Shown here piece after piece: positions 2,529 to 29,946 of a stretch of 64,000 nucleotides of DNA (within the stretch, counting starts at the first letter, position 1; every line of letters starts with the position of its first letter). Both the position numbers and the translations under genes were made by a program. Source of the DNA: an uncultured delta proteobacterium (GTDB taxonomy: Bacteria; Desulfobacterota; RBG-13-43-22). The stretch covers positions 32,001-96,000 of the forward strand of contig CAVUPH010000014.1 in the NCBI GenBank assembly GCA_963743305.1, given 5' to 3'. The notes below the pieces were generated by a model. The model did no database searches, was not told where the DNA came from, and saw nothing but the letters and a program-made list of their open reading frames with translations.

Positions 2529-2573
2529 TCTTTTCACTGATCCTCCGCCAGTCCATCCAAGGCTTACGTCCGA

Positions 2574-3819
2574 TCAGGCCATCAACTCCTGGACCGAAAA
2601 CCAGAGGAGGGCCAGGCTGAGCAGGATAAGGATGCCCACCGTCGCCCAGGACACTTTATTATAGAGGGGTGAGTTTTTAAAAGCTCCCATCAGCTTCACC
2701 CGGTTGATCAGGAGAAGGATAAAAATCAAAATAAAGGGCAGCAGCAGGCCGTTGATCACCTGGGAGAGCAGCATAATCAGAATCAAAGGGGCCTTAGGGA
2801 TCAACACCAACCCCCCGCCCAGAATGATCAGCCCGGTGTAGAGCCACATGAATTGCGGGGCTTCTTTAAAATCCTTGTTGATGCCCGCCTCCCAGCCCAT
2901 CCCCTCGCAGATCACATAGGCCGTGCTCAAGGGCAGGATGGAAGCCGCAAACAGCGAGGCATTGGCCAGACCCAGGGCGAAGAGGAGACTGGCATATTTG
3001 CCGGCCAACGGCGCCAGGGCCACGGCCGCGTCTTCGGCCGTTCGGATGGGGATGTTGTGCACATGAAGCGTGGCCGCACAGGCCACCACAATAAAGAAGG
3101 CCACCACCACGGCCATGATGCAACCGATAATTACGTCCCAGCGGACATACCGGTAATCCTTGGTCCGTATCCCTTTTTCCACAATGGAGGATTGCTGATA
3201 AAACTGCATCCAGGGGGCGATCGTCGTCCCCACCACTCCGATCAGCATCATCATATAGGAACGGTCCAGTTGTATCCGGGGATGGACCATTTCCTGAAAG
3301 ACCCCACCCCAGGCCGGATGGGCCATAAAACCGGAGATGATATACGACAAATAGATCGTGCAGGCCACCAGAAAAACCTTTTCCACGAAATCGATAACTG
3401 CCCTTGACCACCAAAAACCAGACCAGAAATCCCCCGGCGGGGATGGCTATATAGCGGTTCACTCCCAGGATTTCCAGGCTGGCGGCCAACCCGGCAAATT
3501 CCGCCATGATATTCCCCAGGTTAGTCAGCAGCAGGGCCAACAGGACCAGAAAGGTGATCTTGACCCCGAACTCCTCCCGGATCAGGTCCGAAAGACCTTT
3601 CCCGGTGACCACTCCCAGACGGGCCACCATTTCCTGCACCATAATCAACAGGACGGTGATCGGGATCAGGGACCAGAGCAACCCATAACCGTAATGCGCC
3701 CCGGCCAGGGAATAGGTGGTGATCCCCCCGGCATCGTTGTCCACGTTGGCCGTAATTATCCCGGGTCCCACGATACTGAGAAAAAAAAGGAGGCGCTTCC
3801 GGTTCATAGTCCAGCCCAT
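2574..3819 (-). CDS. NRAMP-family divalent metal transporter, NrmT-like Mg2+ type (frameshifted)
   Basis: GPGIITANVDNDAGGITTY and GTTIAPWMQFYQQS motifs are split over ORFs 2866..3819 and 2574..3386. Confidence 0.85.
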
Positions 3820-3828
3820 AATCCGGCC

Positions 3829-5064
3829 CTATCTTCTCCGCCTCAAGGGGGTGGGCAGGAGGATATCGACGATGTCATCCACGGTGATGATCCCCAGCAT
3901 CTGGTCTTCCTCATCGACCACCGGCACGGCCATGAGATTGTATTTGGAGACCATTTCCGCCACTTCTTTCTTATCCACCTCGGAATGGACCTTTTTGGGA
4001 TTGGTTTTCATCAACTCTCCCAACAGCATCTCCGGGGCAGCCAGGATCAAGTCTTTCAGCGAGAGGACCCCCTCCAGATGATCGTCCTTGTCCAGGATAT
4101 AGAGGTAATAGATCATCTCCACGTCGGGGGCCAACAGGCGGAGGGACTGCATGGCCTCGGCCACGGTGGCCTCCTTGGGAAAGGAAACGTAATCCGTGGT
4201 CATCAGGCCCCCGGCGGAATCCTCATCGTGTTCCAGAAGTTCCTGAACATCGCAGGCCTCTTTCTCCTCCATTAAATTCAGGATCTCTTTGGCCTGGCTT
4301 TCGGGGAGGTCCCCCAGGACGTCGGCGGCCTCATCCGGTTCCATCACCTCCAGGACATCGGCCGCCTCCCCGGGCTCCATCTGCTTGAAGATATTGGCCC
4401 GGGTTTCCTCATCCAGTTCATACAGGGCTTCCCCGGCCTTCTCTTTCCCCACCGCGTCGATCAGGCTGGAACGTTCCTGCATGGAGACTTCGGAGATGAT
4501 CTCCGCCAGATCCACGGGATGCATCTGAATCAGGTTCTTACGGGTAATGGTCAGGGTCAGGTGATCCAGCCCCGGCTCCAGGGGCTTGAGATACTGCCAG
4601 GGGATGGGGGTCCCTTTTTTGGATTTCTTAAACCCCAACCGCCGGACCAGCCCTCCCAGCCCCACGTCAATCGCCAGGAGACCGAAATCCCCGTTGACCC
4701 GGCCCAGCCGGACATCATTGACCCGGACCACCTTGACCCCGTTGATATCGACTACCTGCTTATCCATGATATGCTCGGCGATCAGGATTTCGTGGGCCTG
4801 GGGCTCAGCAGAAACCAGGGACTCTTCGGAACCCCGGAAGGCGATCACCTTGCGGTTTAACACGTCCACGTCCATCAGGAGAATATAGAACAGCCCCCGG
4901 CGCCCTTTGACATACAAGCCCTCCACCAGGGGATAGGCCTCCCCCGGCACCACCCGCAGGTCTTTCACCCGCCCGATTTCGTTTCCCCGCTGATCCAGCA
5001 CGGGATGATTCAGCAGTTCACTTAAGAATATGTCGTCGGTGATCATCGGAATTCCCTCAATCAC
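3829..5064 (-). CDS. MgtE intracellular-domain protein (PRC barrels, MgtE_N, CBS pair; no transmembrane part)
   Basis: KQVVDINGVKVVRVND, MHPVDLAEII, MEPDEAADVL, SAGGLMTTDY and GIITVDDIVD motifs. Confidence 0.85.
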   Translation of the reverse strand: MIEGIPMITDDIFLSELLNHPVLDQRGNEIGRVKDLRVVPGEAYPLVEGLYVKGRRGLFYILLMDVDVLNRKVIAFRGSEESLVSAEPQAHEILIAEHIMDKQVVDINGVKVVRVNDVRLGRVNGDFGLLAIDVGLGGLVRRLGFKKSKKGTPIPWQYLKPLEPGLDHLTLTITRKNLIQMHPVDLAEIISEVSMQERSSLIDAVGKEKAGEALYELDEETRANIFKQMEPGEAADVLEVMEPDEAADVLGDLPESQAKEILNLMEEKEACDVQELLEHDEDSAGGLMTTDYVSFPKEATVAEAMQSLRLLAPDVEMIYYLYILDKDDHLEGVLSLKDLILAAPEMLLGELMKTNPKKVHSEVDKKEVAEMVSKYNLMAVPVVDEEDQMLGIITVDDIVDILLPTPLRRRR

Positions 5065-5534
5065 TAAAATCGAAGCGTGGCCTTTAGCCGTTTGGGATTC
5101 AAGAGCAGATCCAGGCCGTCCTGGGCGCTGCGAACCAGTATGTTCGCCGCCTTGATCGCCTCCACCGCGCAGCCTTCCCCCTCGACGACGGCTATGCCCA
5201 CCCGGGCCGCGGAGAGCATCTTCCGGTCGTTGTTGCCGTTGCCCAGGGCCACCACCTTCTCCGGTCCCAGGTCTTTCACCTGGGCCTCTTTTTGAAGGTC
5301 ATGGTCGGCGCCGGTCAGAATAGCAATGGTACAGTTTACCTTTTCCAGGGCTTCCCTGGCCTTGCCAAAGGTATCCGCCGTGAGGATTTGGACCTGCATA
5401 AATTCACTTATTCGGTTCAATCGATCCTCCACACCCGGAAGAAGCTACCCCATCCACCGACAGGGTCCCGGTAAAATCGGAGACCAGATACTCCACCTTC
5501 ACTTCTCCAAAACCCGGAATATCAACAGATACAT
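5064..5534 (-). CDS. HAD-family soluble P-type-ATPase-like protein, copy 1 (frameshifted)
   Basis: SDFTGTLSVDG, LTADTFG and GNGNNDRKML motifs; paralog of 18436..18909. Confidence 0.8.
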
Positions 5535-5718
5535 AATCTCTCCTGGAGGCTGCGCTTAATAGAGAAGAATAACCCGATAAGGGGGCTAATGACAACCCCT
5601 TTTTTCATGTAAAACCTCCGGTCCCGGGGGATACGAGGCGGAGATGGGATCCCCAAGGGTGATGCCCGGGGGAAAGACCGAGTCGGTCTATCTTCGGGCG
5701 CGGTAAGATCTTTCATAA

Positions 5719-7350
<1,632 letters not shown>

Positions 7351-11745: not shown

Positions 11746-11844
11746 AGGGCTTTGTCCGCTGAAACTGTTTTTTCTCTTGACTCCGGATTGGTCATATTTT
11801 AAATTGTTTGGCATTTAAGACTGTCATAAAATAGGTTTTTGTGT

Positions 11845-11897
11845 AGCGATGGAGTTCGCTTAACCGTCCCGCGGATTCGGGACTGATAACTCCTGCC
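11845..11897 (+). ncRNA. Fluoride (crcB) riboswitch 1
   Basis: AGCGAUGGAGUUCGCU-UAACCG-UCCCGCGGAUUCGGGA-CUGAUAACUCCUGC matches the P1/pseudoknot consensus. A TAAAAT -10 box lies at 11827. Confidence 0.92.
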
Positions 11898-11926
11898 TAA
11901 TGAAATTTTTGGCAGGAGTTTTTTAT
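11888..11926 (+). terminator. Intrinsic terminator overlapping the riboswitch 1 aptamer (expression platform)
   Basis: AACTCCTGCC pairs with GGCAGGAGTT as a 10-bp stem followed by a T run; the stem competes with the aptamer 3' end. Confidence 0.85.
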
Positions 11927-11985
11927 TTCTTGGGTGACCCCAATGACCTCTGCTCCCGCCAAAATAAGATGATGGGAGGACAAAA

Positions 11986-13746
11986 ATGGTTCTCGATAAA
12001 TACGCGCAACTTAAAAATGAACTCGTAACCTGCATCAACTCCCTGGTGACCATCGAAAGTGACACCAGTGGCCTCTATGAAGAACTCAGAGAAAAAATCC
12101 AAAATAATGTCTTTAACCTCGTTGTTCTCGGACAGTTCAAAAGGGGGAAGACCAGCCTGATCAATGCCCTCCTGGGGGCAGAAATATTACCCACCGCGAT
12201 TGTCCCTCTCACCTCTATTGCCACGATTCTCAAATACGGCGAAACCGTAAATATCAATGTGTATTTCAATGACGGCCGGGTGATGGACATTGAACCGGCA
12301 ACCCTCCCCCAATATGTAACGGAAAAAGGAAATCCCAGAAATGAGAAAGAGGTGCAGGAAGTCATCATCGCTTATCCTTCGACCTATCTAAAAGACGGGG
12401 TCCGGTTAATCGACACCCCCGGCGTCGGATCGGTCTATGAACATAATACCGATGTGGCTTATCATTATTTACCCAAGTCGGATGCCGCCCTGTTTCTCCT
12501 CTCGGTAGATCAGCCGGTGAGCAAGGCCGAGCTTGAATTTTTGAAAGATGTCCAGGAATTCTCAAACAGGATATTCTTTCTCCAGAACAAGGCCGATTAT
12601 GTGGGCGCCGAAGACCTGGCCGAATCCATTTCCTTCTCGAAGAAAATTATTGAGGAGTGCCTGGGCAACGAAGTAAAGATATTCCCTCTTTCCGCCAAAT
12701 GGGCACTCGAAGGCAAATTGTCCGGAACAAAGGAATTTCTGGAGAAAAGTTTTCTTCCCGAATTTGAACGAGTCCTGAATACCTTTCTGATGCAGGAAAA
12801 GGGCCGGGTCCTGCTCCTTTCCGTGACGAATAATCTTCTGCGGCTGCTCGCTCAGGCCCGGTTCAAGCTTGATCTGGAGATGAAATCGTTCTCGACGCCT
12901 TTGGAGGAATTGAAGGAAAAGATAAAGATCTTCGAGAATAAAAAGAAAGAGATCCTGGTCGAAAAAGACGACTTCTACCTCCTGCTGGATGGCGCCACGA
13001 AAAATATTATCAAGAACGTCCTGGATGAAGACACGAAGGCCTTCAGGCAGGAGTTGCTTCTTAAGGTGTCGGAAAACATTGAAACCCGCTACCCGGAGTA
13101 TTCGGGCCTGTCCCTGAAGGAGATTCAGCGGCGTCTTGAAGAACAGATTGTCGCCGAAGTCAAACAGGCCTTTATGGCCTGGCGCGGCCTGGAGGATGAG
13201 AAACTGTCAAAAACCTTTGAGACGTCCTGCCAGAGGTTTATTACCAAGATCGACGAGACCGTGGATTCCCTCCTCAATTTCTCAGCCGACCTCTTCGCCG
13301 TTCCCTTCGATATCGTCCAGGCCGAGGCCATTTGGTCATCGAAGTCGAGGTTTTACTATAAATTCAAGGAGCAGCCGGGGGGGATTGAGATCGTGGCCTC
13401 ATCGCTGACCTTGTTGCTGCCGAAATTCATCGGCGAAAAGATCTTGCTGAAAAAGATGAAGGAATACCTCGAGGGAGTAATAGACAGGCAGTCCGCCAGG
13501 ATTGGTTCTGACTTTGAAGAAAGACTGGATAAGAGTAAGCTGGCTTTCAGGTGGGAGATGCTACAGAGGATTGAGGCCACCATGGAAGGGATATCCCAGG
13601 CTATCGAAACGGGGATGAGCCGGAAATTGCAGGGCGAAAAGGCCGTGGAGGAACAAAAGGCTTTCCTCCTGAAAAAGGAAAAGAGAATGGGTGAAATCAA
13701 GGAAAAATTGATGTGGATACGGGAAAATTTATCCAGTAAAATTTGA
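11986..13746 (+). CDS. Bacterial dynamin-like GTPase (DLP-A)
   Basis: G1 GQFKRGKT, G2 PLTS, G3 DTPG and G4 NKAD motifs, followed by a long helical/coiled-coil C-terminus. Confidence 0.9.
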   Translation: MVLDKYAQLKNELVTCINSLVTIESDTSGLYEELREKIQNNVFNLVVLGQFKRGKTSLINALLGAEILPTAIVPLTSIATILKYGETVNINVYFNDGRVMDIEPATLPQYVTEKGNPRNEKEVQEVIIAYPSTYLKDGVRLIDTPGVGSVYEHNTDVAYHYLPKSDAALFLLSVDQPVSKAELEFLKDVQEFSNRIFFLQNKADYVGAEDLAESISFSKKIIEECLGNEVKIFPLSAKWALEGKLSGTKEFLEKSFLPEFERVLNTFLMQEKGRVLLLSVTNNLLRLLAQARFKLDLEMKSFSTPLEELKEKIKIFENKKKEILVEKDDFYLLLDGATKNIIKNVLDEDTKAFRQELLLKVSENIETRYPEYSGLSLKEIQRRLEEQIVAEVKQAFMAWRGLEDEKLSKTFETSCQRFITKIDETVDSLLNFSADLFAVPFDIVQAEAIWSSKSRFYYKFKEQPGGIEIVASSLTLLLPKFIGEKILLKKMKEYLEGVIDRQSARIGSDFEERLDKSKLAFRWEMLQRIEATMEGISQAIETGMSRKLQGEKAVEEQKAFLLKKEKRMGEIKEKLMWIRENLSSKI

Positions 13747-13887
13747 TGGTTTCGAAAAAAGTCCCCAACGCTGTCATTGCGAGGAGTGAAGCGACGAAGC
13801 AATCCCCAAGAATCAGGCAATTACCATGGTGGGGATTGCTTCGCTTCGCTCGCAATGACAGGTTTTTGGACTTTTGCGAGGTTATCA
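13744..13887. repeat. MITE/REP-like palindromic element, copy 1
   Basis: TGATGGTTTCG...GTCATTGCGAG...GCAATCCCCA/TGGGGATTGC...CTCGCAATGAC...ATCA; an inverted copy lies at 45635..45782. Confidence 0.85.
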
Positions 13888-13916
13888 AAACTGAACCCCT
13901 TTGAGGGAGGTCTGCC

Positions 13917-14378
13917 ATGCCGGAAGAAAAATGCGTTTTTTGTAGTATTGCCGCCGGACAGGCGCCGGCCCATATCGTCCAGGAGGATGGTCTGTCCCTG
14001 GCCTTGCTGGATATAAATCCTTTGGCTCAGGGCCACTGCCTGATCATTCCCAGAAGGCATGTGCCCTGGTGGCATGACCTGACGAAAAAAGAAACCGACA
14101 GCCTCTTTCGAATGGCCCAAGAAGTTGCCGGAAAAATCATGGAAACCTTCCATCCGGATTTCGTTTGCATGTACGCCCGGGGGAGAAGGATCCCCCATAC
14201 CCATATATTTTTAGTCCCCACCTATTCGGGTGATCCCCTGGACCGCTTTTTCAATGCCCTGGAAGGGTTCCAGGAGACGCCGACGGAGTTGAGTCGGCTC
14301 AAACGGCCGGACCGGATGCGGGCGACAGCGGAACGTTTGCGGAAATCGGTCTGTCTCCGGGCAGGTGAAGGGGAATAG
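13917..14378 (+). CDS. HIT-family nucleotide hydrolase
   Basis: CVFCSI, LDINPLAQGHCLIIP and PHTHIFLVP motifs. Confidence 0.9.
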   Translation: MPEEKCVFCSIAAGQAPAHIVQEDGLSLALLDINPLAQGHCLIIPRRHVPWWHDLTKKETDSLFRMAQEVAGKIMETFHPDFVCMYARGRRIPHTHIFLVPTYSGDPLDRFFNALEGFQETPTELSRLKRPDRMRATAERLRKSVCLRAGEGE

Positions 14379-14411
14379 GCGATAAACCAAGGACCTATTC
14401 AGGCCAATAGA

Positions 14412-14440
14412 TTGAAATTGCTAAATAATTTATGCATAAT
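14412..14440 (+). promoter_or_regulatory. sigma70 promoter upstream of the mgtA leader
   Basis: TTGAAA-N17-CATAAT. Confidence 0.55.
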
Positions 14441-14770
14441 CCCCGCCGTTGGGCCTTTGAGGTCGGACCCCACAAAAAGCTTGCCCCCTTGGCGGATGGG
14501 GAGTAAACTACCGCCATTTTAGGTGACCAGGAAGCCTGTGGATAGATGGAATTTTAGTTGAAGGTATCGCAATGAATGACCCGGATGGTAGTGATAGACC
14601 GTCTGAATAAAACCGAAAGAACGAATTCCACCGAATTGGAAGACCCTGTACCTCAACGACCAGAGGTTGCCTTTGGAATAATGAACGGTCGGCGTTCCTA
14701 CCGAGCTTAACCCGCCGGTTCGCCCCCGGCCGCCTTCTCCTTCCTGCCGCGGCCTTAATGGAGGTGAACC

Positions 14771-14926
14771 ATGCAAATCAAGATTTCACTTCTCGTTCCC
14801 GTGTTCCAAGTAATGCCGGCGATCGGGACCGTCAACTCCTATCAAAAATTCCATGAGGCGGCACGCCCCGCCGTGATGGCCGAACGGCTTTCCACCTTAG
14901 CCGGGGAATCGAAGGTTGCGCCATGA
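14771..14926 (+). CDS. 51-aa small ORF translationally coupled to mgtA
   Basis: Strong RBS GGAGGTGA; MQIKISLLVPVFQVMPAIGT...KVAP*; its stop overlaps the mgtA ATG (ATGA). Confidence 0.45.
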   Translation: MQIKISLLVPVFQVMPAIGTVNSYQKFHEAARPAVMAERLSTLAGESKVAP

Positions 14927-17586
14927 AAAAGCGATTCCTTGCGCGATTCTCGAAGGGCTCCGGTATCCAATCGCCCGCAACCCAAACCTTGAACGGGCAT
15001 GAACGGCAATTGGTGGAGCTTTGCACGATCCCCATCCAGGAAGCGCTTAGGCACGCTCAAGACGACCCTTCAGGGACTCAAGGCCGAAGAAGCGGATCAT
15101 CGACTGGACGAGTACGGCCCCAACGAGTTGTCTCATCTCAAGCGCCTGGGTTTCTGGGCCGACATGGCTCACCGCCTGAAGAGTCCTCTGGTCGTTCAGC
15201 TCTTGGTGATCGCACTGGTCTCCGGGGTCATCGGCGAGTTGAAGTCAACCGCCATCGTCTCCGCGATGATCGTGTTGAGCGTCGGGTTGTCCTACATTCT
15301 CGACCGCCGCTCCAGCCGTACCGTCGAATCCCTCGGCAAGCGCGTTCAGTCCCGCACCTTCGTCTTGCGGGATGGCGTGGAGACCGAGGTCAGGATATCC
15401 GAAATCGTTCCGGGCGACATCGTGCTCCTCCAGGCCGGCTCCATCGTTCCGGCGGATCTGCGGTTGATCGCCGCCAAGGATTTTTTCGTCAGCGAGTCGG
15501 CCCTGACCGGGGAATCCATGCCGGTCGAAAAAACGAGTGCAAGCGCCGACTCATCCATCCAGTCGGCCATGGATCTGCCAAACGCCTGTTTTTTCGGGAC
15601 CTCCGTTACCAGCGGCACGGCCCGGGGCGTGGTCGTGAACACCGGCACCCGCACCCTGTTTGGAGCCATTTCGGAGCGGCTGACCGAAAAGCGGGAGGAA
15701 ACCAGCTTCGACCGGGGCGTGCGTTCCTTCACCTGGCTGATGATCCGGTTCATGGTGGTGATGGTCTGCGCGGTGTTCTTCATCGTGGGCATGACCAAGG
15801 GCAACTGGCTGGAGGCGCTGCTGTTCGGCCTGTCCATTGCCGTCGGCCTCACCCCGGAAATGCTGCCGATGATCGTCACCGTCAACCTGGCCAAGGGCGC
15901 GCTGACCATGGCCAAGAAAAAGGTCATCGTCAAACGGCTGCCGTCGATCCAGAACTTCGGAGCCATCGACATCCTGTGCACGGACAAGACCGGGACCCTG
16001 ACCCAGGACCGGGTCGTTCTGGAGCGCCATGTCGATATCGTCGGACACACCAGCGAAGAGGTCCTGAACTACGCCTATCTCAACAGCTACTTCCAGACCG
16101 GCCTGCGCAACCTGATCGACCGGGCGGTTCTCGAGTCATGCCGACCTGCATCCGGAGCAGGACTGCCGGCTTGTGGATGAACTGCCCTTTGATTTTCAGC
16201 GCCGCCGCATGTCCGTGGTGGTGGACTATGAAGAGGACCATGTCCTGATCTGCAAAGGCGCGGTGGAGGAGATCTACGCCTGTTGCAGCCATTATCAGAT
16301 CGAGGACGAGGTCTATCCGCTGATCGACATGATCCGTGCCGACCTGTTCGAAGAGGTCGAGAAGCTCAATCGCGACGGTTTCCGGGTCCTCGGCATCGCT
16401 TATCGGGAGTTTCCCCGGTCGACAAGACCGTTTTCACGGTCGATGATGAAAGCCAACTCATCCTGCTCGGCTATATCGCCTTCTTCGATCCGCCCAAAGT
16501 CTCCGCCACGGAGGCGATTGAGCTTCTGGCAAAAGCCGGAGTGAAGGTCAAGGTTCTGACCGGCGACAACGGCCTGGTGACCGAAAAGGTCTGCCGGGAT
16601 GTGGGACTCGATGCGGAACGGATCGTCACGGGAGCGGAACTCTCACGGCTTTCCCCGAGCGATTTCTCGAAAACGGTGCAGGACAGCAATGTCTTCGTCA
16701 AGCTCTCTCCGGCGCAAAAAGAGCAGATTGTGAAGGAACTGCGCGAACAACGGCCACGTGGTGGGGTTCATGGGCGACGGCATCAACGACGCGCCGGCGC
16801 TGAAGGCGGCGGATGTCGGCATTTCGGTGGATTCCGCGGTCGACGTGGCCAAGGAAGCCGCGGACATCGTGCTCCTGGAAAAGAGCCTCCTGGTCCTGGA
16901 AGAGGGCATCATGGAAGGCCGGAGGGTCTTCGCCAATATCGTCAAATACATCCGCATGGGCGCCAGCTCCAATTTCGGCAACATGTTCAGCGTGGTCGGG
17001 GCGAGCTACCTGCTGCCTTTCCTTCCCATGCAGCCGGTGCAGATTCTCACGAACAACCTGCTCTACGACTTCTCGCAGACCGGAATTCCCACCGACAATG
17101 TGGATGAGGAACTGATCGCCAAGCCCCTCAAATGGAATATCGACAACATCAAGCGCTTCATGGTCTTCATCGGGCCGATCAGCTCCATCTTCGACTACGC
17201 CACCTTCGCCCTGATGTGGTTCTTTTTCCATTGCAGCGCCTTTCTCGATCCCGCGACCGGCGCCATGCAAAAGGAATCGCTGGCGCGGCTCTTTCAGACC
17301 GGATGGTTCGTGGAGTCGCTGCTGACCCAGACATTGATCGTCCATATCATCAGGACCAGGAGGATCCCCTTCTTCGGAAGCCGGGCCTCCTTGCCACATG
17401 ACTATGACGACCCTGATCATCATGGCCATCGGGGCCTGGTTGCCGTATTCGCCTTTCGCGGCCGATTTGGGGATGGTTCCGCTGCCCGCGGTCTACTGGG
17501 CCTGGATAGCGGCTTTTCTGGTGACATACGCCGTGCTGACACACGTGGTGAAGACCTGGTTCTTCAAGCGTTTTGGAGGTGATTGA
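14923..17586 (+). CDS. mgtA: Mg2+-translocating P-type ATPase (several frameshifts)
   Basis: [43 protein letters not shown] and ASSNFGN motifs are spread over successive frames. Confidence 0.9.
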
Positions 17587-18393
17587 TCATGGATACTATT
17601 TTGGATGCCCTTCAGGAGGGCAGATTGTTCGAGCTGCCTGAAAACGACAAGGCCCATGCCTTGCAGTTTCTGGCGCACATCATCGAAGCCTTTCCGGAGA
17701 CCCCCGCCGGAACCGATGTGGTCGGACTTGTCATGAAAAGAGAAGAGGCGACCAACACCGCCATCGGCAAGGGCTGGGCCTGTCCGCATGCGCGGGTGCC
17801 CTATGACGAGGATCTCATGTGCGTGATCGGATGGAGTCCGACGGGAATCGATTACGGCGCGCCGGACGGCAAGCCCGTCTCGCTGGTCGTCATGTACCTG
17901 GTTCCGGACAACCAGCGGAATCATTACCTGCGCGAGGTATCGATGCTGGCCAAGGCGCTTGAAACCTATCCCGACCTTGAAAAGTTTAGTGAAGCCGGAA
18001 ACCTGGACGATGTCCGCAACTACCTGCTCGACCTGATTGACGCCACCAAGGGAACTGTCGGTCCGGATGCCCGGGCCAAGATGATCCGGCTGCAAACCAA
18101 GGCGGCTCTTGAAACATTCCCCCTTCGCGACCTTTCGAATCTGATTGTGGAGCCCGTCACGCTTGTCGCCGGTCCGGGAATAAAGCACATTGCTCTCACC
18201 CAGAATGCCGAGTCTTGCGGAATGGCTCGACTCCGCGAGCGATCTGATCGAAAAGATGGAAACCGACGGCGTGTACCAGAACGGCGGATGGCGCGTCTTG
18301 CGCCGGGGCGCGTTACCTATCAAGGCGGGACGGGTTGCCTATGATTGCCTGGCGATCCGGATGGCTTCAGGGAACTCGGTCACTATTAAATAA
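17583..18393 (+). CDS. PTS EIIA (Ntr/Fru-type) domain protein with C-terminal extension (frameshifted)
   Basis: REEATNTAIGKGWACPHAR (phospho-His motif) and GIDYGAPDGKPV. Confidence 0.75.
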
Positions 18394-18435
18394 CCGAATA
18401 AAGGTATTTCCCGGCGTTTTACCTTTTGCCCTTTA

Positions 18436-18909
18436 TTAAAAGCGTAAAGTCGCCTTCAACCTTTTGGGGTTCAGTAAAAGGTCCAGACCGTCCAGGATAC
18501 TGCGGACATGGATATCCGCCGAGGTAATCGCATCCACAGCGCAACCTTCCCCCTCGGAAACAGCAATACCTACTTTGGCTGTTTTGAGCATCCGGCGGTC
18601 GTTATTCCCGTTACCGAAGGCTATGGTATTTTCAGACCCGATTTTTAGCAGGTATGCTTCCTTTTGTCGGTCATGGTTTTCTCCGGAAAGGATATGAATC
18701 TGGCCCCCATTTATCTCCTGTAATTCTTCCCTGGCCTTACCGAAGGTATCGGCTGTTAAAAAGTGAATTTCCAAAAATTCGCTGATCTTATTCAATCTAT
18801 CTTTTACCCCGTCGATTAAGCGTCCATCAACCGAGAGTGTTCCGGTGAAATCGGAAACCAGATATTTTAATTGAATCGGCCCAAATCCGGGGATGTCTAA
18901 ATCAAACAT
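18436..18909 (-). CDS. HAD-family soluble P-type-ATPase-like protein, copy 2
   Basis: SDFTGTLSVDG, LTADTFG and GNGNND motifs. Confidence 0.85.
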   Translation of the reverse strand: MFDLDIPGFGPIQLKYLVSDFTGTLSVDGRLIDGVKDRLNKISEFLEIHFLTADTFGKAREELQEINGGQIHILSGENHDRQKEAYLLKIGSENTIAFGNGNNDRRMLKTAKVGIAVSEGEGCAVDAITSADIHVRSILDGLDLLLNPKRLKATLRF

Positions 18910-18938
18910 AAGTCCTCCTTATTTTTCCTTTTTAGGAA

Positions 18939-20130
18939 TTATTGTCTTTTCCGTTTAAAGAGTAAATAGATAAACAAAAGGGCCGACAGCCAGGCCGTGG
19001 CCGTACCGTACAGGAAGGTCGCCGGGGGGCCGAAACGATCCCAGAGGAGCCCGCCGATGAGGCTGGCCGGGAACACCGCCAGCCCAACCAGGGTATTATA
19101 AAGCCCGAATCCGGTGGCCTTGAACTCTTGAGGGATGATGGTGGCTAAGAAGGCCTTCTGCACCCCCTCGGTCATGGCCATAAAAAGGCCGTAGGCGATG
19201 AACAAAAACCAGATGTGGACTGGGCGCCCGGCCTGGGCAAATCCCAGGTAGATGAACCCAAAAAGGATAAAACTCAAAAAGATGATCGGTTTTGGTCCGA
19301 TTCGGTCCGATAATATACCGGCGGGCAAGGCCCCCAGGCCATAAATGACATTAAAAGTGAGATAGACCAGGGGAATGACAGCCAGCGGAATCCCCACATT
19401 TTGGGCCCGTAGGATCAGGAATACATCGCTGGAGTTTCCCAGAGAAAACAGGGCCGCCACCACGATAAAAAATTTATAGGAACCACTGAAACTTTTCCAA
19501 CCCAGCCTGGGTCTTCCCGCCTCAGGGATCGAACAGGCCCGGGTTTCCCGAATGAAAAAAATGATGATCAGGACGGCCAGGGCCCCCGGGATCATGGACA
19601 GCCAGAACACCAGACGATACTGGCCGTTAAAATAAGCCAGCAGCCCAAAGGCTACCGCCGGGCCGACCACGGCCCCCAGGGTATCCATGCCCCGATGGAA
19701 ACCGAAGGAACGTCCCAGGTTTGGCGCTTCACAGGATTCGGCAATCAGGGCGTCCCTCGGGGCAGTGCGGACCCCTTTGCCGAAACGGTCCATGAAGCGG
19801 GAGGCCAGGACCTGCCCCCAATTAGGGGCGGTGGCGATCAGCGGACGGCTCAGGGTGGAGATTCCGTAGCCCAGGGCCATAAGCCATTTCCGATGGCCCG
19901 AGCGATCCGAGAGCCAACCTGAAAAGACTTTCAGCAGGCTGGCCGTGCTCTCGGCAATTCCCTCAATCAGACCAATAACCGACTTTGGGACCCCGAGTAC
20001 GGAAGAAAGGAATAGAGGTACCAGGGGGTAGACCATCTCCGAACTGAAGTCCATGAAAAAACTGACCAGTCCGGTAAAGAAGATATTTCGGTTGAGGCCC
20101 GCAGATTTTGTTTGGGGAATTTGTTCCCAT
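18939..20130 (-). CDS. MFS transporter (5' frameshift)
   Basis: DFSSEM, GWLSDRSG, DRFGKGVRTAPRDALIA and GILSDRIG motifs with about 12 hydrophobic segments. Confidence 0.9.
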
Positions 20131-20170
20131 GGAATTATCCGTTCTATTTCATTTATTCGCCGGACAGTAG

Positions 20171-20188
20171 ATGTAACTGTAGTTACAT
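20171..20188. promoter_or_regulatory. Palindromic operator between the divergent MFS and chrB-like genes
   Basis: ATGTAACT-GT-AGTTACAT is a perfect inverted repeat. Further GTTACAT half sites occur near 20228 and upstream of the MFS remnant near 5945. Confidence 0.6.
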
Positions 20189-20278
20189 TATATAAATTGA
20201 ATTGTCAAGAAATAATTTAAAATTACTGTTACATTTATTTGTTTGACATTTTTATGGACTAACTTATATCATTGAACC

Positions 20279-20920
20279 ATGAAATGGCTTTTTTTTTCCT
20301 ATAGTCTCCCGACGGAACCGTCCAAGGCCAGAGTGTATACCTGGAGGCAGTTAAAAAAACTGGGAGCCGTAAATTACCAATCGGTCTGGGTCCTGCCGTA
20401 TTCCAAGGAATGGCTCGAAGACCTCACGAAGCTTATGGAGTCCATTGGAAGCCGCCGAGGGGAAAGCCTGCTGATTGAGGGAAAAAGCTTGACCAAGGAG
20501 CAAGAGGATCGAATCAATAAGGCCTTTATCGATTCACGAAATGAGGAATACGGGGAATTGATCGAAAAGTGTGAAGATTATTTCAAGGAGATCGATTTTG
20601 AAATCGAGAGGCAAAATTTCATCTTTGCCGAGGTGGAGGAAAATGAGGAGGAACTTGAAAAACTTAAACTGTGGTTTAAAAAGGTGGCCAAGCGGGATGT
20701 CCTGGATGTGCCGCTACGCAAGGTAGCAGTTGAGAAATTAATAGACTGCGAAAAGCGTTTTGAGGAATTTTCCCAAAAGGTTTTCGAACATGTTCAATTG
20801 AAAAATACGGAGAAAAAGGGGCCCACCCCAAAGAAGGCCTTGAGGAAAAAGAAAGATTCAGGAACGCTATTTTCCTGCGGGCTGAAAGGGAAGCCGAGGG
20901 AGGACGAACTTTTAAAATAA
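20279..20920 (+). CDS. ChrB N-terminal-domain protein (putative transcriptional regulator)
   Basis: WLFFSYSLPTEPSKARVYTWRQLKKLGAV, FIDSRNEEYGE and ENEEELEKLKLW...RD resemble ChrB-family short proteins. Confidence 0.75.
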   Translation: MKWLFFSYSLPTEPSKARVYTWRQLKKLGAVNYQSVWVLPYSKEWLEDLTKLMESIGSRRGESLLIEGKSLTKEQEDRINKAFIDSRNEEYGELIEKCEDYFKEIDFEIERQNFIFAEVEENEEELEKLKLWFKKVAKRDVLDVPLRKVAVEKLIDCEKRFEEFSQKVFEHVQLKNTEKKGPTPKKALRKKKDSGTLFSCGLKGKPREDELLK

Positions 20921-21042
20921 TCGAAGGCGAACCATTGTCAACCAGTTTTGCCGAAGATTTATATCAAGCACTTTGATCTCTGGGGAGAAGACAAACCTTC
21001 CGCCAATGCCCAGCCTGTGGAAAAAAACGATGAGGAGGAGGT

Positions 21043-22243
21043 ATGGCAGATTTTAATTTGATCCGTGAATTAACCGTAACCGCCGATACCAAGATCGTGC
21101 TTCTTGTCATGGACGGTCTTGGCGGGGTGCCGAATGCGCCGGGCGGACCCACCGAACTGGAGTCCGCCCGCACACCGAACCTTGACCGTCTGGCGGTCAA
21201 AAGCATGCTGGGCTCTCAATCCCCATCGGGCACGGTATCACCCCAGGCTCCGGACCGGGGCACCTGGCCCTGTTCGGCTACGACCCGCTCAAGTTTCTCA
21301 TCGGCCGGGGTGCTGGAGGCGCTCGGCATCGGTTTTGAGCTGACGCCGGACGACGTGGCCGCGCGGGGCAATTTCTGCACGGTGGATGACAAGCTGCTCA
21401 TCACCGACCGCCGCGCCGGACGCATTCCGACGAAAAAATGCGCCGAGCTGGTGGTTAAGCTGCGGGCGATCCGGCTGCCGCAGGTGGAGATCTTCGTCGA
21501 GCCGGTTCAGGACTACCGGTTTGCGCTGATCTTCCGTGGCAAGAGCCGTCCGCCGCCCTGACCGACACCGATCCGCAAAAGACCGGGCTTCCGCCGCTTC
21601 AGGTCAGGCCCGGGCCGAGGAGGCGCGCAAGACGGCCGAGATGGTCAATTGCTGGGTTGCGGCCGCCCGCGAGCTGCTTAAAGACGAGCAGCCGGCCAAC
21701 ATGGTGACGCTGCGGGGCTGGGCCAAGGAACCCGGTCTTCCCAAGTTCGACGACATCTACCGTCTCAAGGCCGAGCCATCGCCGTGTACCCGATGTACAA
21801 GGGCCTGGCCAGCTGGTCGGCATGGACGTGGTACCGGACTGCACAGTCTGGAGGAGCAGATCGAGGCGCTGAAGGCGAACTGGGAGGATTACGACTTCTT
21901 CTTCGTCCACTATCAAGTACACCGACAGCCGGGGCGAAGACGGCGACTTCGCGGCCAAGGCCGCCGAAATCGAGAAGGTGGACGCCGCGATCCCGCGTTT
22001 CCTGGATCTCAAGCCGGACGTGTTCATCGTGACCGGCGACCACAGCACGCCGGCCGTTTGGAAGGCGCATTCCTGGCACCCCGTGCCGACCCTGCTCTAC
22101 GCTCCGCATCTGGCCGGCCGCAACGACGTGAAGGGATTCGGGGAGACCGAATGCCTGCGGGGGCGCTCGGCCAGTTCCAGGCCATGGACCTGATGCCGCT
22201 GGCGTTAGCCTATGCCGGGCGCATGGCCAAGTTCGGCGCTTAG
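21043..22243 (+). CDS. apgM: Cofactor-independent phosphoglycerate mutase, ApgM type (several frameshifts)
   Basis: [39 protein letters not shown] and TGDHSTP...HSWHPVP motifs. Confidence 0.85.
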
Positions 22244-22249
22244 CCCTGC

Positions 22250-24128
22250 AGCGCCTTTCAGGCCGTCCTCCACTTGAATCCCTTCTCGTCAGCGCCTTGG
22301 GCCGCCGGCCAATCCTCCAACCTCAGCCATCTCAGGCATAATGTCGGCCAGGTCACGGCGGATCGCCTCGGCAGTCCTCCGGGCTCGCTTCCGCTGACCC
22401 GAGAAGCCGGTCCAACTGCGCCCGATACGCATGGGCGTACGAATCGAACCCCGTTTGAATCTCGCCGGTGACCCTCCGTACCCAGGCCTCGAGGAGCCGG
22501 CGATACGTTCGAAAGGCTTCCGAAACCGCCGGGCCGAACCGGTGCCGGAGTCGGCGTTCCACCCGCGCCCTTACCAGCGACGCAGCGATTGACACGAATG
22601 GTGAGCGCTTGTAGGACGGTATCTGCCCGGCGAAATCAAGTTGCGGCATTTCTCGGAGGCCCGAGACAAGCTCTTCCTCCTGAGGCATCTCAGTCATATT
22701 CAGTTCCCGGGCGGCCCGCTGAAGGGCAACGGTCAGCTCCTTGGCGAGGCCATTAAGCCTCACGAACAACTCCGTGGCGGCGCCGGCGGCAGTTTCCGCT
22801 ACGGAGGCGGTCAACAGGTCCGACTCCACTTTTTGCCCCTGGCGCCAGCGCGCAACTATTCGGGACGCGGCTTCCCGCAGTGCGGTCGATGCCAGGTTCT
22901 CCACTTCTTCGGCTGCCCGAAGACAGGCCGAAATTTCTTCAGGTATCCGGCCGGCCGACCGCCTCAACTCCTTTTCCACCTGTTTTAATTTTTCGGCATC
23001 CGTCGGACGGATTCCCTCCACACGATCCAGCCTGGACCGCAGCGCCGCCTCAACCGATTCCCGCAGGGCCGCAATTTTCCGCCGCACCGACTCACCCGCA
23101 AGCTGTTGGTGCCGTTGACAAAGCGGCTCGATCTGTTCTTTGAACCAGGCCTCCAATAAGGCCGCGGAATCTCCGACGATGCTGACCGGCTGGACATTCA
23201 GGGTCAGGCCCAACCGCCCCTGGATCTGCTCGGAAATATAAGTCCGTGCCGACTCACGGTCCTCCCGTGTCAGGAGGTCTGCCTTGCTGAGCAAGACCGA
23301 AGCCGGCACTCCCGCCTCCACCAGGGCCTGAATGGTCGCCAGGTCCTCTTCATCGAGCGTCGAGCCGGCGTCGACCAACACCATGCCGAGATCGCACTGC
23401 GGGAGGTAGGCCCGGGTCTCGTCGGCCCCGGAAGTCGCCAAAGAACCGAGACCCGGAGTGTCCACGAACACCATCCCATCACTGAGTCTGGCGCTAGGCA
23501 GCTCTGCTATAATCTTGGTGACGCCCTTGGAGTTACCCGGATTGCGTTGCTCGGTAACGAAATCCGGCAAGGCGGCGACTTCGAAGCGCTCAACTCGGCG
23601 GTCTGTGAAAGTGACCGTCAACCTCGGTTCCGGTCCGAAAACCAGCCGGGTCGGCACCGCCGTGATCGGATTCACGCCGACCGGAAGCACGGCCACGTGC
23701 AGCATCTGATTCAACAACGACGATTTTCCCGAACTCACCCGGCCGAAGACGGCTATTTCGAAGCGCTGGGTCTCCAGGCGATCCAGAATCATCGTAAGCT
23801 TGGGGCGAAACTCGACCAAACCCTGCGCGGAAATGATTCTCTCGATCTTATGAAGCAGATCCGCATCGTCCCCGTCCCATTGGAGTCTCTCGCTGCGGGT
23901 GCCGAGGTCCTGCCCGAGGCCTTGCACCAGATAGGCGTCGAGTGTGTCGACCAGCGCCTGGAGTTCGTTGACCAGGCCGTTGAGGTCGGCGATCGCGGAT
24001 TCCGGAACTTCTCCGTAGCCCCTCATGTATTTAGGGCCTATCTCGGTCAGGGCGATTCCGACAAATGATAGGTTATCCACATACTCGACACTGCTGATAA
24101 GACGACGTTGCTGGGATTCATTCAACAT
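22250..24128 (-). CDS. Bacterial dynamin-like GTPase (DLP-B); exact 3' end uncertain
   Basis: G1 GRVSSGKS, PITAVPT, DTPG and SKAD motifs with a helical C-terminus. The ORF track ends at 22353, probably at a frameshift. Confidence 0.85.
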
Positions 24129-25631: not shown

Positions 25632-26382
25632 TTATTTATTGTTCCGATCAGATATAAAGGGATAAAATCGCGATTCCTCCTGATTAACCGAATCAGAAGG
25701 AGAAACCCGCGAAAAAAATAGCTTCCACCCGCTGCACCAGCCTACGGCGCTGATCAAGGCCGCTTTATCCTCTTCGGTTTCCGTCCCCTGGAATTCCATG
25801 CGGAAAGAGTGGGCAGTCAGACAATATGATGAAGAATTTCCTTTACAAAAGCCTGATGGCGGGGAAAATCATTTACGATCCCTGAGCGTATATCCTCCAT
25901 AAGATGGGGCCGGCATCTTTGAGCCGATTCATTTCCCAAACACCGCCCGCAAACGGCCTTCTGCCAGTATTTCTTGGTGTCCAGGGCAATTTTTGAAGCT
26001 CCGAGAGGTCCCGGCCTCTTCTGATGACATCCGCTTGGGCCTTCCCTATCGAGTTAGGTCCAAAACCTTCCTCACACATCAAACAGGGGCCCTGGTTCCG
26101 AAGGCGTCTAATCGTCCGGAGACGGGGCAGGGACCCCTGGAAATTAAGGGCCGACCACGCCTGCTCCATGAGATCCAGATAAAGGATGGCCGGTCCATGC
26201 ATCCATCCTCGGCGAAAAGAGGCATCCATGGAGATAAAGCCCCAGGCGTGGCGTCCACAGAAGCCCCAGGCCTTTTTAAGCCGCTCCCGTGTACGGGAGG
26301 ACATGATACTCCCCTGGATAAACCACCAGAGGAAGTGGATTTCACCTTCCGATAATTGAAAATCCTTTCTTTCAATGAGCAC
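25632..26382 (-). CDS. Conserved-looking hypothetical Cys/His-rich protein (frameshifted)
   Basis: HFLWWFIQGSIM, AWGFCGRHAW and CLMCE; coding continues in other frames to about DKAALISAVGWCSGW. Confidence 0.6.
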
Positions 26383-26876
26383 GGATATTTTCTTACTCTG
26401 TGTCGTTCACCTTCATCGTGTTTAAAATCTCTCGGGCGGCCTCTCGAACCGATTCGACCGGATCCGTAGCAGGCGGCGGATACGGATTCCAGGGCCGGTG
26501 CCCCCCCCAATTTGCCCAGGGCCTGAACGGCTTCTTTACGGACCAGGAACGAGGGGTGCCGCACGAAATCCTGGAGTTGTGGAAGGGAAGCCGGATCTTG
26601 GATTTCTCCTAAGGCCCAAACAATGTCCGGAAGCAAATAAATGTCCCGGGTCTCCTGCGCCGCCTGCATTAAAGCCGGAAGGGCTTGCTTGGCCTTTAAC
26701 AAACCCAGTATGCGGGCCGCCCGATGGCGGGTCTCCGGCTCCGGGTGCTTCAAGGAAAGGGCCAGGCGCTCCGCATAGCCCATCGCTTTCCATCGGCTAA
26801 GATCCTCCCGGCAACGGGGACAGGTTTCAAAGGAATCAGAGGATTCGAACCAGCAGAACGGGCAATAATAAGTCAT
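26375..26876 (-). CDS. Zn-ribbon plus HEAT-repeat protein (3' end uncertain)
   Basis: CPFC...CPRC followed by HEAT-like repeats (RHRAARILG, VWALGEI, RKEAVQALG). Confidence 0.75.
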
Positions 26877-27959: not shown

Positions 27960-27999
27960 AAATAAAAAACTTCTACCCCAATTATTTTGGAGTAGAAGT
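27960..27999 (-). terminator. Terminator of the riboswitch 2 expression platform
   Basis: On the minus strand ACTTCTAC pairs with GTAGAAGT, followed by TTTTTATT. Confidence 0.8.
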
Positions 28000-28061
28000 C
28001 ATGAGCTTCCTTTAAACCTACCGGTAATTAAAAGAAAGCGGTTCCGGTGAACTTCATCACC
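27992..28061 (-). ncRNA. Fluoride (crcB) riboswitch 2
   Basis: Minus strand reads GGUGAUGAAGUUCACC-GGAACCGC...GCUCAUGACUUCUAC; the GAAGU/ACUUC pseudoknot is complementary. Confidence 0.9.
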
Positions 28062-28122
28062 TTTTTATAATCTAAAAACCATCGTCGTCCGATATCATCG
28101 TTCAAAAAAATTTTCCCCGCTG

Positions 28123-28564
28123 TTAGTCCTTTTTCTTTTCAGACTGGGCCAGGATGACGGTACAAGGGGCATGGGTGGTGATCTGCACGGCCGTGCTGCC
28201 GCTTTGGGTATGCAGAATGGCAGATCGGCCTTTTTTACCCAAGAGCAGAGCATCAAACATGCCCTTTTGGGCATAGGCGATCACGGCCTCCACTTCATGC
28301 CCCGGAAGAATTCGGCATTTGATTTCCACCCCGTGTTCCCGGCGCATCTTCACAGACCAGGGTTTGCTCCTTTTCGATTTCCTTGGTGATCTCGGCCAGG
28401 GCCTCTTTGACCTCCCCGATCGTGGCCGCATAATGGGGGAGCTGTTCGATGATGGTCAGCAAATGGACTTCCGAATCAAACTTTCTGGACAGTTCCAGGG
28501 CGATCTCCAGGGCCTTCTTGGAATCGTCGGACCCGTCATAGGCCACCAATAATTTTTTAAACAT
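28123..28564 (-). CDS. Universal stress protein (frameshifted)
   Basis: KKLLVAYDGSDDSKKAL and GSTAVQITTHAPCTVIL motifs. Confidence 0.85.
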
Positions 28565-28582
28565 AGAACACCTCCTATTCTT

Positions 28583-29725
28583 CTAAATGCTCCGAAGTAG
28601 AGTAGAACCATTAAGATCGGGTAATTCATATTTGGGATTAAACCATTTCTGGGCGATAAAGGTGGGGATGATGGCGCTCAAGACCACAACGGCCACCAGC
28701 ACAGAAAACTGGGTTCGATTGATGATACCGGCCGTCAATCCAAAAACCGATGAAATGGCTCCCACATGGTCAGACCCGTGCTCATCAACAGGGTCGTGTA
28801 CATGGCATTTTCAGGAAGATATTTTTTAGCAGGGGATAAGACCCCCACTATTTTGGTGACTTGTTTGACCAAAAGCATCTGCACCAGCAAGCCTAAACTC
28901 AATAAAAGCAATTTCAAAGAGATATTCATCCCGCCGTTGATAAAGAAGAATGGGGTAATAATGGCAAAGGCCACTACCCGAAGTCGGTGCTGTAATTTAC
29001 GGTTTTCCATAAAAATTTTGGACATGGCCAGACCCAGGACAAAGGCCGGCAGGATGGCATGGCTGGCCCCGACTTTGGCGAAAAACATAAAAACAACCAG
29101 GATGAGAAAAAGAAAATTGATCTCGGCTCAATCACCCGGTCACCGTAGCGCTTGCAGATCCAGGGATAGATCCTGGGGATAATCAGAATCGAGCAGGGCG
29201 GAAACCCCCAGAAAGAGCAGGGTGAACCACGTTGAGCTCGAGAAACAGCAGAGTAAGGGCCAGGGTTGTTCCCAAATCAGTAAAAAAAGTGGCGGCCATA
29301 AGGATCTTGCCCAGTTCGGTATTGGTTAAACCGGTTTCGACCAAGACGGCATAGACGACGGCCAGGGAGGTGGTGGAAAGGGCTATTCCGGCGATCTCAG
29401 CGGCCGGCCAGGTCCAGTCCAACAGGTAATGGGTATAAAATAAGGCACCCAGAAAAGGAGCTAAAAAAGAAACGATGGTCCGACAAGAACTTCCTTAAAT
29501 TTGGCTTTCATGACCTGGGTGTCCACCTCGGCCCCGGCCAGGAAGGTCAAGAGGATACCGCCAAAGCCGGCCAGATAGGTACTCCAGGGAGTGGGATGGA
29601 GTTCCAAAAAGTTTCCTCCGATGACACCGAGGGACATTTCAATGATGCCACTGAGAGGCCCAGCTCAACCCGAAGAAGATTGGCGAGGATGGTGCGGAGA
29701 GGATAAATACGAAGATGGCGTCCAT
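28583..29725 (-). CDS. Cation:proton antiporter, CPA2-like (many frameshifts)
   Basis: ALSTTSLAVVYAVL, AATFFTDLG, ILPAFVLG, PFFFINGG and TTLLMSTGLT fragments occur in order. Confidence 0.8.
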
Positions 29726-29775
29726 TCAAAACCTCCATTACAAGGAAGCATCCTCACAATGAGCCTTCTTCGGCA

Positions 29776-29800: not shown

Positions 29801-29845
29801 TCATCCGTACTCCCTAATGCCCCCCACCGCGGCAGTGACCTGCGC

Positions 29846-29896
29846 AGTAGGAGTCATTAGCTCGAATTCGGCGTTTATCGGGGGGACTCCATCCCC
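29846..29896 (-). ncRNA. Fluoride (crcB) riboswitch 3
   Basis: Minus strand reads GGGGAUGGAGUCCCCC-CGAUAAACGCC...GCUAAUGACUCCUAC. A TTGACA -35 box lies at 29926-29931. Confidence 0.92.
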
Positions 29897-29946
29897 ATCT
29901 AATAAATTAAAGGAATTTTAATAATTGTCAATTAGTTTTTGCCACT

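Follow-up and report, generated by a model that had tools for sequence, protein, structure and literature searches.

A gene for a dynamin-like protein (DLP), here DLP1, lies directly behind a fluoride riboswitch in a 64,000-nucleotide stretch of DNA from an uncultured delta proteobacterium (contig CAVUPH010000014.1), which we call the window. The sensor and the protein family are each known, but their pairing is unreported and widely conserved, and its presence in more than 100 other bacterial genomes points to an unreported role of bacterial dynamins in how cells cope with fluoride. What bacterial DLPs do physiologically is largely open, and for few of them has an inducing signal been defined. 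One of the most specific chemical sensors known is linked to at least two DLP lineages, from two sampled phyla and from metagenome contigs, and in some genomes the DLP operon is the sole target of that sensor. Sodium fluoride would be a clean and cheap inducer, and fluoride tolerance and membrane integrity would offer a clear phenotype for a DLP. The pairing also suggests that fluoride stress has an overlooked membrane component.

The DLP1 leader and its gene product

A first-pass annotation had read this region as a promoter, an aptamer, an overlapping 10-bp terminator, a ribosome-binding site and an intact 586-aa DLP followed by a gene of the HIT family. All of these elements were recovered (Table 1), the promoter on weak evidence: the region holds six promoter-like sites against 2.7 +/- 1.7 in shuffled sequences, an enrichment of about twofold, which lends little weight to TTGACT-17-TAAATT. 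The aptamer matches the full Rfam model (positions 1-64) with a score above the gathering score of 34 (E 9.2e-9 in the 64-kb window), and its P1 begins at 11845, where the annotation had placed the start. Read directly, the pseudoknot partners are GAUGGAGUU in the P1 loop (11848-11856, with GGAGU) and ACUCCU in the 3' tail (11889-11894); we take GGAGU and ACUCC to be the pair known from the solved structure. The terminator stem, in which AACUCCUGCC (11888-11897) pairs with GGCAGGAGUU (11911-11920) across a 13-nt loop before UUUUAUUUC, shares ACUCCU with the aptamer. It folds at -18.5 kcal/mol (z -3.76), and none of 200 shuffles folded as well; a consensus terminator scan overlooked it because the loop is longer than 8 nt.

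In an alignment of 43 related aptamers, which was seeded by a motif regular expression favouring the conserved core, 97.7% of the P1/P2 cells are paired and five of the eight pairs have changed on both sides. The covariation score of this alignment was reached by none of 500 shuffles, and slid controls were 31-52% paired. The whole genome (4.9 Mb in 43 contigs, 90% complete) contains just three fluoride riboswitches, all of them inside the window, so the juxtaposition of riboswitch and DLP1 is far from chance. Judging from the sequence, the known logic of the class and its conservation, we consider it very likely that a transcription-terminating fluoride riboswitch is the ON switch of the DLP1 operon, probably including the HIT gene.

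The Dynamin_N domain (PF00350) of DLP1 scores 101.6 bits against a cut-off of 27 (E 6.1e-29, residues 45-191). The protein aligns end to end with its nearest homologs (584 aa), over 99-100% of the length, and 2779 of the 7999 candidates scored are homologs at E <= 1e-10. Across 24 homologs, GQFKRGKT (49-56), T76, DTPG (143-146) and NKAD (201-204), which by the general naming of GTPase motifs we take to be G1 to G4, either never vary or are conserved to at least 90%. In a profile search against PDB sequences, the bacterial dynamin-like protein (BDLP) of Nostoc punctiforme came first (6.8e-30), followed by Cj-DLP1 (1e-17), IniA (1.7e-17, over residues 14-407) and Cj-DLP2 (4.7e-14). The AlphaFold2 model of DLP1 is of moderate confidence (predicted local distance difference test score, pLDDT, 70; predicted template-modelling score 0.59) and has a G domain and five long helices (257-303, 306-372, 377-437, 480-549 and 551-583). 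Foldseek placed BDLP at the top (template-modelling score, TM, 0.62-0.67) and IniA next (TM 0.53-0.54), then Cj-DLP, LeoA, SynDLP and mitofusins. BDLP (PDB 2j68, 2j69, 2w6d) is thus the best match in both sequence and fold, sharing a G domain and, on the DLP1 model, a helical neck and trunk and a tip region; it differs in being about 100 residues longer, in having a defined hydrophobic paddle and in sharing only about 19% identity with DLP1. The predicted tip of DLP1 (445-482, pLDDT below 50) contains the conserved residues W450, F456, Y457, Y458, F460, L476, L478 and F481. NCBIfam has no equivalog for DLP1, its best model being DynA with 68 bits against a cut-off of 1600, and the PADLOC matches (LeoA 57.4 bits, LeoBC 53.7 bits) are at family level only. 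Nearby Protein Atlas clusters are all of the dynamin family; their sparse phylum labels, Thermodesulfobacteriota and Acidobacteriota, serve as leads only. On sequence and model, DLP1 is a predicted membrane-remodelling GTPase of the BDLP/IniA type; its G motifs are intact, its modelled helical stalk is long, and its predicted tip has conserved aromatic and hydrophobic residues.

DLP1 scores with the type that is common in a sample of a second phylum (829-1029 bits; see below), while the DLPs of its own phylum mostly reach at most 563 bits, except in five genomes. It is present in three of 13 other genomes of the window's own family, and its guanine-plus-cytosine (GC) content is 0.48 versus 0.54 for the window. 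The riboswitch-DLP cassette of the window may have been acquired laterally.

Recurrence of the riboswitch-DLP pairing

A scan with one genome per species gave 563 loci with DLP1 relatives, of which the best 80 were kept (50-89% identity, 868 kb, 78 assemblies; L and G numbers are our labels for loci and genomes). Our own covariance model, built from 43 aptamers, found 124 aptamers in these 80 loci. A same-strand aptamer lies 5' of the DLP gene in 79 of them, at no more than 350 nt in 67 and at 909-2891 nt in 12; the sole locus without one, L075, offers only 407 nt of upstream sequence. Nine of the 12 distant cases run riboswitch, Na+/H+ exchanger, universal stress protein (USP), DLP, and one (L078) runs riboswitch, DUF6062, DLP; in L060 and L011, opposite-strand open reading frame (ORF) calls stand between aptamer and DLP. 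Of the 67 DLP-proximal aptamers, 59 are accompanied by a terminator with its 5' arm beginning at the conserved (A/G)ACUCCU. When the Rfam model was run on the 11 lowest-scoring proximal aptamers, eight passed its gathering score.

In 401 genomes of the window's phylum, searched with a DLP1 profile at E <= 1e-15, 74 had a match. Upstream regions of 1.5 kb were taken for 40 of the 79 listed matches (20 lower-tier full-length, all seven intermediate and 13 of about 30 G-domain-only), and 35 of these 40 contain a correctly oriented aptamer by our own model and the Rfam model alike (19/20, 5/7 and 11/13 by tier). The distance to the ORF is mostly within about 150 nt; three aptamers stand at 660-840 nt, among them that of G197, where the order is riboswitch-CrcB-DUF190-DLP. 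A further sample was drawn around G403, and its members are labelled Nitrospirota or Thermodesulfovibrionales; because the two samples have no hit in common and differ in hit profile, we took this one as a second GTDB phylum. DLP1-type genes occur there in 19 of 201 genomes, at 20 loci, 15 of which are records already counted above and hence no fresh sample. An aptamer precedes 18 of the 20, within 1.5 kb in 14 and at about 1.7 kb in four (L042, L047, L087 and G817); G403 and G979 are the two without.

The first-pass annotation had considered that homologs might never carry the riboswitch, which would have made the arrangement a one-off rearrangement, and had proposed scanning their upstream regions. 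The scan gave the opposite result, with the motif in 79/80, 35/40 and 18/20 loci, and in 5/6 for relatives of a second DLP described below. The sequence and the homolog loci thus support the anatomy and the direct riboswitch control in the annotation's interpretation; its proposals for what the protein does, membrane remodelling under fluoride or replacement of a trapped GTPase, are weighed in the next section.

A census of RF01734 in 15 whole genomes shows the weight of the DLP in the fluoride regulon: 13 of them have a riboswitch upstream of the DLP operon, and in eight of the 15 (G401, G402, G404, G405, G394, G197, G029 and G817) that riboswitch is the genome's only one. The DLP-operon aptamer of G891 scores 31 bits, under the Rfam threshold. 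In G394, which is 99% complete in one contig, the single riboswitch precedes a gene for a 559-aa DLP, with one for a 164-aa HIT protein 18 nt further on, and this genome gave neither a CrcB nor a CLC match. Nor did G402, whose fluoride riboswitch serves the DLP operon alone. The window's own genome gave no CrcB match, and its one CLC is encoded on another contig.

The HIT gene is a recurrent partner of the DLP, found in 11 of 81 islands (the 80 loci plus the window) and directly 3' of the DLP gene in L010, L011, L031, G394 and G370. In the window it starts 170 nt after the DLP1 stop, with no terminator-like site on the plus strand of the gap, and it probably belongs to the DLP1 transcription unit. 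Its domain (PF01230) scores 68.4 bits against a cut-off of 21.5. The window protein has no H.H.H match to the histidine triad H-x-H-x-H-x-x, its IPHTHIF keeping the last two histidines only, and its G394 ortholog (locus L143, 6675-7169) has the same IPHTHIF-type degenerate triad. We regard it as a variant member of the superfamily and a putative enzyme. The two HIT proteins share 59.7% identity and the neighbouring DLPs 33% over 200 residues, the HIT pair being conserved far better than the DLPs beside it. An excerpt of PMC4613722 states that Fhit-branch HIT enzymes act on adenosine 5'-phosphorofluoridate, and a title cited there says that they catalyse fluorolysis; fluoride-linked chemistry is therefore plausible for the HIT partner, against which stands the missing first histidine in the window protein.

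In lineages without recognisable fluoride exporters, such as that of G394, the riboswitch-controlled DLP with its HIT partner might even be the main fluoride defence, a speculation that we consider unlikely. On such a route, resealing or reshaping of the membrane would fall to the membrane-remodelling GTPase, which might itself be locked by GDP-metal-fluoride, and the task of HIT would be to clear away fluoridated nucleotides. If true, the DLP-HIT pair of the G394 type would provide transporter-independent fluoride resistance.

Proposed membrane protection and competing explanations

With the known fluoride riboswitch regulon (crcB motif RNA, RF01734), the DLP1 locus shares the aptamer class and the terminator-overlap ON design, and its islands share the partners CrcB, DUF190, Na+/H+ exchanger, USP and enolase. 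The target is different: an excerpt of Weinberg 2010 (PMC2864571) lists mutS and genes for K+/Cl- transport and formate hydrogen lyase under crcB motif RNA, and dynamin-like GTPases are a class unnamed in that excerpt; the reviews consulted likewise name classes of gene other than dynamins. A membrane-remodelling GTPase would be a mechanistically new class in a regulon of exporters, ion exchangers and fluoride-sensitive enzymes. Our literature search found no paper that joins fluoride riboswitches with dynamins, a listing as a rare association in Baker et al. 2012 being possible. Papers on fluoride riboswitches that mention GTPases were not relevant by title (PMC9971707 names GTPases in its references only), those on fluoride and bacterial dynamins or dynamin family proteins were, by title, structural or eukaryotic only, and the one paper examined among those touching Nitrospir- does not mention dynamins.

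Among bacterial dynamins, IniA of the mycobacterial IniBAC operon is comparable in being of BDLP type and similar in size. It is induced by chemical stress (cell-wall inhibitors) via protein regulators, stands beside IniB and IniC, and is tied to tolerance and membrane integrity. DLP1, in contrast, is a lone DLP, sometimes with HIT, under an RNA sensor of an inorganic anion. DynA of Bacillus subtilis and the LeoABC or 'Dynamins' systems are Dynamin_N GTPases with suggested roles in protecting membranes, tolerating phage or releasing vesicles. Their likeness to DLP1 is weak by the NCBIfam and PADLOC scores given above; DynA is a two-headed fusion and Leo a multi-gene set, and neither architecture occurs at DLP1 loci. 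We know of no fluoride link for the Nostoc BDLP.

We favour, with modest confidence, a reading in two parts: a terminating fluoride ON switch for the DLP operon and a membrane role of the DLP under fluoride. Without fluoride, the 3' tail of the aptamer, ACUCCUGCC, would pair into the 10-bp terminator, and transcription would end before DLP1. With fluoride, the tail would be kept in the aptamer pseudoknot, the terminator would be blocked and the DLP would be made. An overlapping-terminator design is described for the riboswitch class in the same excerpt of Weinberg 2010 (PMC2864571). For the second part, we hypothesize by analogy with the stress-induced IniA and DynA that the DLP protects or repairs the cytoplasmic membrane in fluoride or hydrogen fluoride stress, a possibility that we rate somewhat short of even, while the HIT enzyme may clear fluoride-derived nucleotide adducts. 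According to the abstract of PMC12700350, fluoride triggers extensive lysis in diverse bacteria.

Several points weigh against this reading. The membrane role of DLP1 is transferred from its homologs. DLP1 lacks a transmembrane segment, the top 19-residue hydropathy outside the G domain being 1.35 (at 469), and in a model that is itself moderate (pLDDT 70), confidence is lowest at the tip. That fluoride damages membranes directly is not established. A search for RNA sequencing runs with the locus found none, and DNA runs show shares of 0.09 or less. As to the pairing, the loci are related to one another, and the counts are therefore not counts of independent events. L061, L072 and L076, three of the 11 weakest proximal aptamers, fall below the Rfam gathering score, L075/G403 and G979 have their riboswitch on another contig, and no aptamer was found within 1.5 kb of the DLP in L091, L094, L103, L109 and L119. 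A transcript shared with HIT is made less certain by the 170-nt gap and by a promoter-like site at 13714-13742.

Of the other explanations, compensation survives best, with what we judge to be a small chance of being right: GDP-metal-fluoride (Mg2+ or Al3+) mimics of the transition state would poison the DLP GTPase, and the cell would make more of it, as for enolase. GDP-AlFx is established in biochemistry to trap dynamin-family G domains. The title of PDB entry 8eew names an OPA1 assembly with GDP-AlFx, and enolase, the classic fluoride target, is riboswitch-controlled in the same islands. However, most loci and genomes have one DLP, behind a terminator expected to hold it off without fluoride, so that no basal DLP pool is evident that could be topped up, and the riboswitch-linked enolases, unlike the DLP, are extra copies of an essential enzyme. 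A gene that is off without fluoride is ill suited to a housekeeping enzyme needing replacement, and compensation fits less well than membrane protection.

An improbable alternative, ranked after compensation, makes the DLP a partner in ion handling that organises, inserts or stabilises CrcB/Fluc, the Na+/H+ exchanger or an MFS transporter, or that sheds fluoride-loaded membrane or vesicles. The predicted co-transcription of DLP genes with Na+/H+ exchanger and USP (nine loci, G817) and with CrcB-DUF190 (G197) would agree with this, as would the MFS gene in 27 of 81 islands. Yet G394, G401, G402 and G404 spend their only riboswitch on the DLP and have no transporter in the operon or the available flank. 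Less probable again is that fluoride acts as a co-activator, both inducing the DLP and switching it on, the induced protein being locked by GDP-Mg/Al-fluoride into a stable membrane scaffold. Metal fluorides trap dynamin G-domain dimers, and indirect support comes from the tight and ancient link between the fluoride sensor and two DLP lineages, but no sequence feature examined points to a fluoride-locked scaffold.

That the DLPs are anti-phage 'Dynamins' (LeoA/LeoBC-like) genes merely sitting in a stress island is very improbable, since the PADLOC scores of 57.4 and 53.7 bits are at family level only and a dedicated fluoride aptamer with its terminator stands directly 5' in more than 100 loci. 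The DLP1 loci have a single DLP each and no LeoA/LeoBC set; where two DLPs were called, in L031, L083 and L084, the calls are pieces of one gene in split frames. There is equally little to be said for a decayed riboswitch and a DLP regulated otherwise: in the window aptamer, P1 does close with U-A instead of G-C, and an A replaces a G within the GAUGAC block, but the aptamer scores above the Rfam threshold, the terminator design is conserved, and the same variants are common to many homolog leaders, with compensatory changes.

Related islands and the remainder of the window

DLP1 is part of a multi-riboswitch type of fluoride island with Na+/H+ exchanger-USP, CrcB-DUF190 and enolase units; the features of the window are collected in Table 1.

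Table 1. Riboswitches, regulatory sites and genes in the window (window positions)
Feature	Position	Strand	Basis or remark
Candidate sigma-70-like promoter, TTGACT-17-TAAATT	11777..11805	+	9/12 consensus matches; weak
Fluoride riboswitch aptamer (RF01734) of the DLP1 leader	11836..11902	+	Rfam covariance model, 43.5 bits
Predicted intrinsic terminator (expression platform), 10-bp stem and U-tract	11888..11929	+	5' arm is the ACUCCU tail of the aptamer
Predicted ribosome-binding site, GGGAGG	11974..11979	+	6 nt 5' of the ATG at 11986
DLP1, BDLP/IniA-type bacterial dynamin-like GTPase, 586 aa	11986..13746	+	Dynamin_N, homologs, fold match
HIT-family protein, 153 aa	13917..14378	+	PF01230; degenerate triad IPHTHIF
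DLP2, divergent dynamin-like GTPase, 591 aa	22353..24128	-	32% identity to DLP1 over the G domain
HEAT-repeat/zinc-ribbon protein 3' of RS2	26079..26876	-	Recurrent in DLP operons elsewhere
Second fluoride riboswitch, RS2	27986..28070	-	Rfam 45.9 bits; overlapping 14-bp terminator 28000-27968
Na+/H+ exchanger and USP genes under RS3	28123..29760	-	Both split into several frames
Third fluoride riboswitch, RS3, 5' of the Na+/H+ exchanger and USP frames	29841..29905	-	Rfam 46.7 bits

Clustering of 973 ORFs from the 81 islands yielded three recurrent units: riboswitch, Na+/H+ exchanger and USP (39-41 loci); riboswitch, CrcB and DUF190 (18-25 loci); and riboswitch and DLP, after which come, in no fixed order, a STAND-like P-loop protein (15), HEAT/zinc-ribbon (14), HAD-like (25), MFS (27), enolase (16) and HIT (11). 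The enolase gene adjoins the DLP gene in its 16 islands, sometimes with an aptamer of its own. First ORFs after non-DLP aptamers were run against Pfam in 49 of 56 cases, seven being dropped as near-duplicates or very short (L011:5035-5217, L018, the L022 enolase, a second L031 entry, L038, L040 and L069). The 49 comprise 32 Na+/H+ exchangers, four DUF190 (called because the ORF picker skipped the short CrcB), two CrcB, two DUF6062, two without a family, and one each of enolase, HEAT, HAD, STAND-like, NADH dehydrogenase, beta-propeller and DUF2934. Besides the variant HIT, further leads among the recurrent partners are a 268-aa STAND/AAA_16-like P-loop protein (L065, 2826-3632), a 128-aa zinc-ribbon and HEAT protein (L047, 7749-8135), a small 157-aa HAD-like protein (L076, 6213-6686) and DUF6062 (L078, 5153-5920), all of them poorly characterised.

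A second DLP in the window, DLP2, closes a minus-strand string headed by RS2 (prenyltransferase-like ORF, HEAT, PAP2, MFS fragment, DLP2). No strong terminator-like site was found between RS2 and DLP2, and the string is possibly co-transcribed with DLP2 as its distal gene. At E <= 1e-40, 400 genomes of the window's phylum held no relative of DLP2. Six metagenome loci do (46-72% identity), and five of them have a same-strand upstream aptamer; three of the six, L137-L139, are near-identical contigs and not independent. In L137-L139 the aptamer stands 133 nt 5' of a gene for a 700-aa DLP, L141 has an aptamer upstream of its DLP2 relative, and L142 runs riboswitch, enolase, 278-aa protein, DLP. 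The locus without an aptamer, L140, has only 118 nt of upstream sequence. Beyond its DLP unit, L137 contains a riboswitch-HEAT-further DLP unit and a riboswitch-DUF6062 unit, which makes three fluoride riboswitches in 4.3 kb (2538-6823), two leading to different DLPs (one via HEAT) and one to DUF6062. A homolog search with the L137 DLP returned 2749 proteins.

The first ORF after RS2 (26889-27770, minus strand, 293 aa) has a prenyltransferase/terpene-cyclase alpha-alpha toroid repeat, and this stretch of about 990 nt is missing from L010, where HEAT directly follows RS2. The RS3 exchanger and USP region, compared with its 81%-identical counterpart in L010, has 54 gap positions in 2129 nt, against 12 in 1967 nt for the DLP region. 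The L010 copies are intact, with a 385-aa exchanger, and the split frames of the window look like an assembly indel error or recent decay.

The distance from HIT to HEAT and RS2 is about 1.1 kb in L010 versus about 12 kb in the window, where the stretch 14400-26000 looks like an insertion or rearrangement. It has a GC content of 0.556 (DLP2 0.61, DLP1 0.48) and holds P-type ATPase pieces, a PTS EIIA-like ORF, HAD-like, MFS and ChrB_N ORFs, phosphoglycerate mutase pieces, DLP2, the MFS fragment and PAP2. At 14923-17582 (plus strand), overlapping ORFs in different frames with HAD-hydrolase and Cation_ATPase_C domains resemble the C-terminal half of a P-type ATPase, which may be another broken gene; a 441-aa ORF before them has no Pfam match.

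An enolase gene without a riboswitch of its own lies 4.5 kb upstream of the DLP1 leader (5776-7350, plus strand). Its enolase domain begins at residue 102 of the ORF, and the true start is probably near 6079. Finally, long P2-loop insertions occur in some aptamers, about 30 nt in L071 (2930-3026 and 5813-5908) and 22 nt in RS2, and these aptamers still score above threshold.

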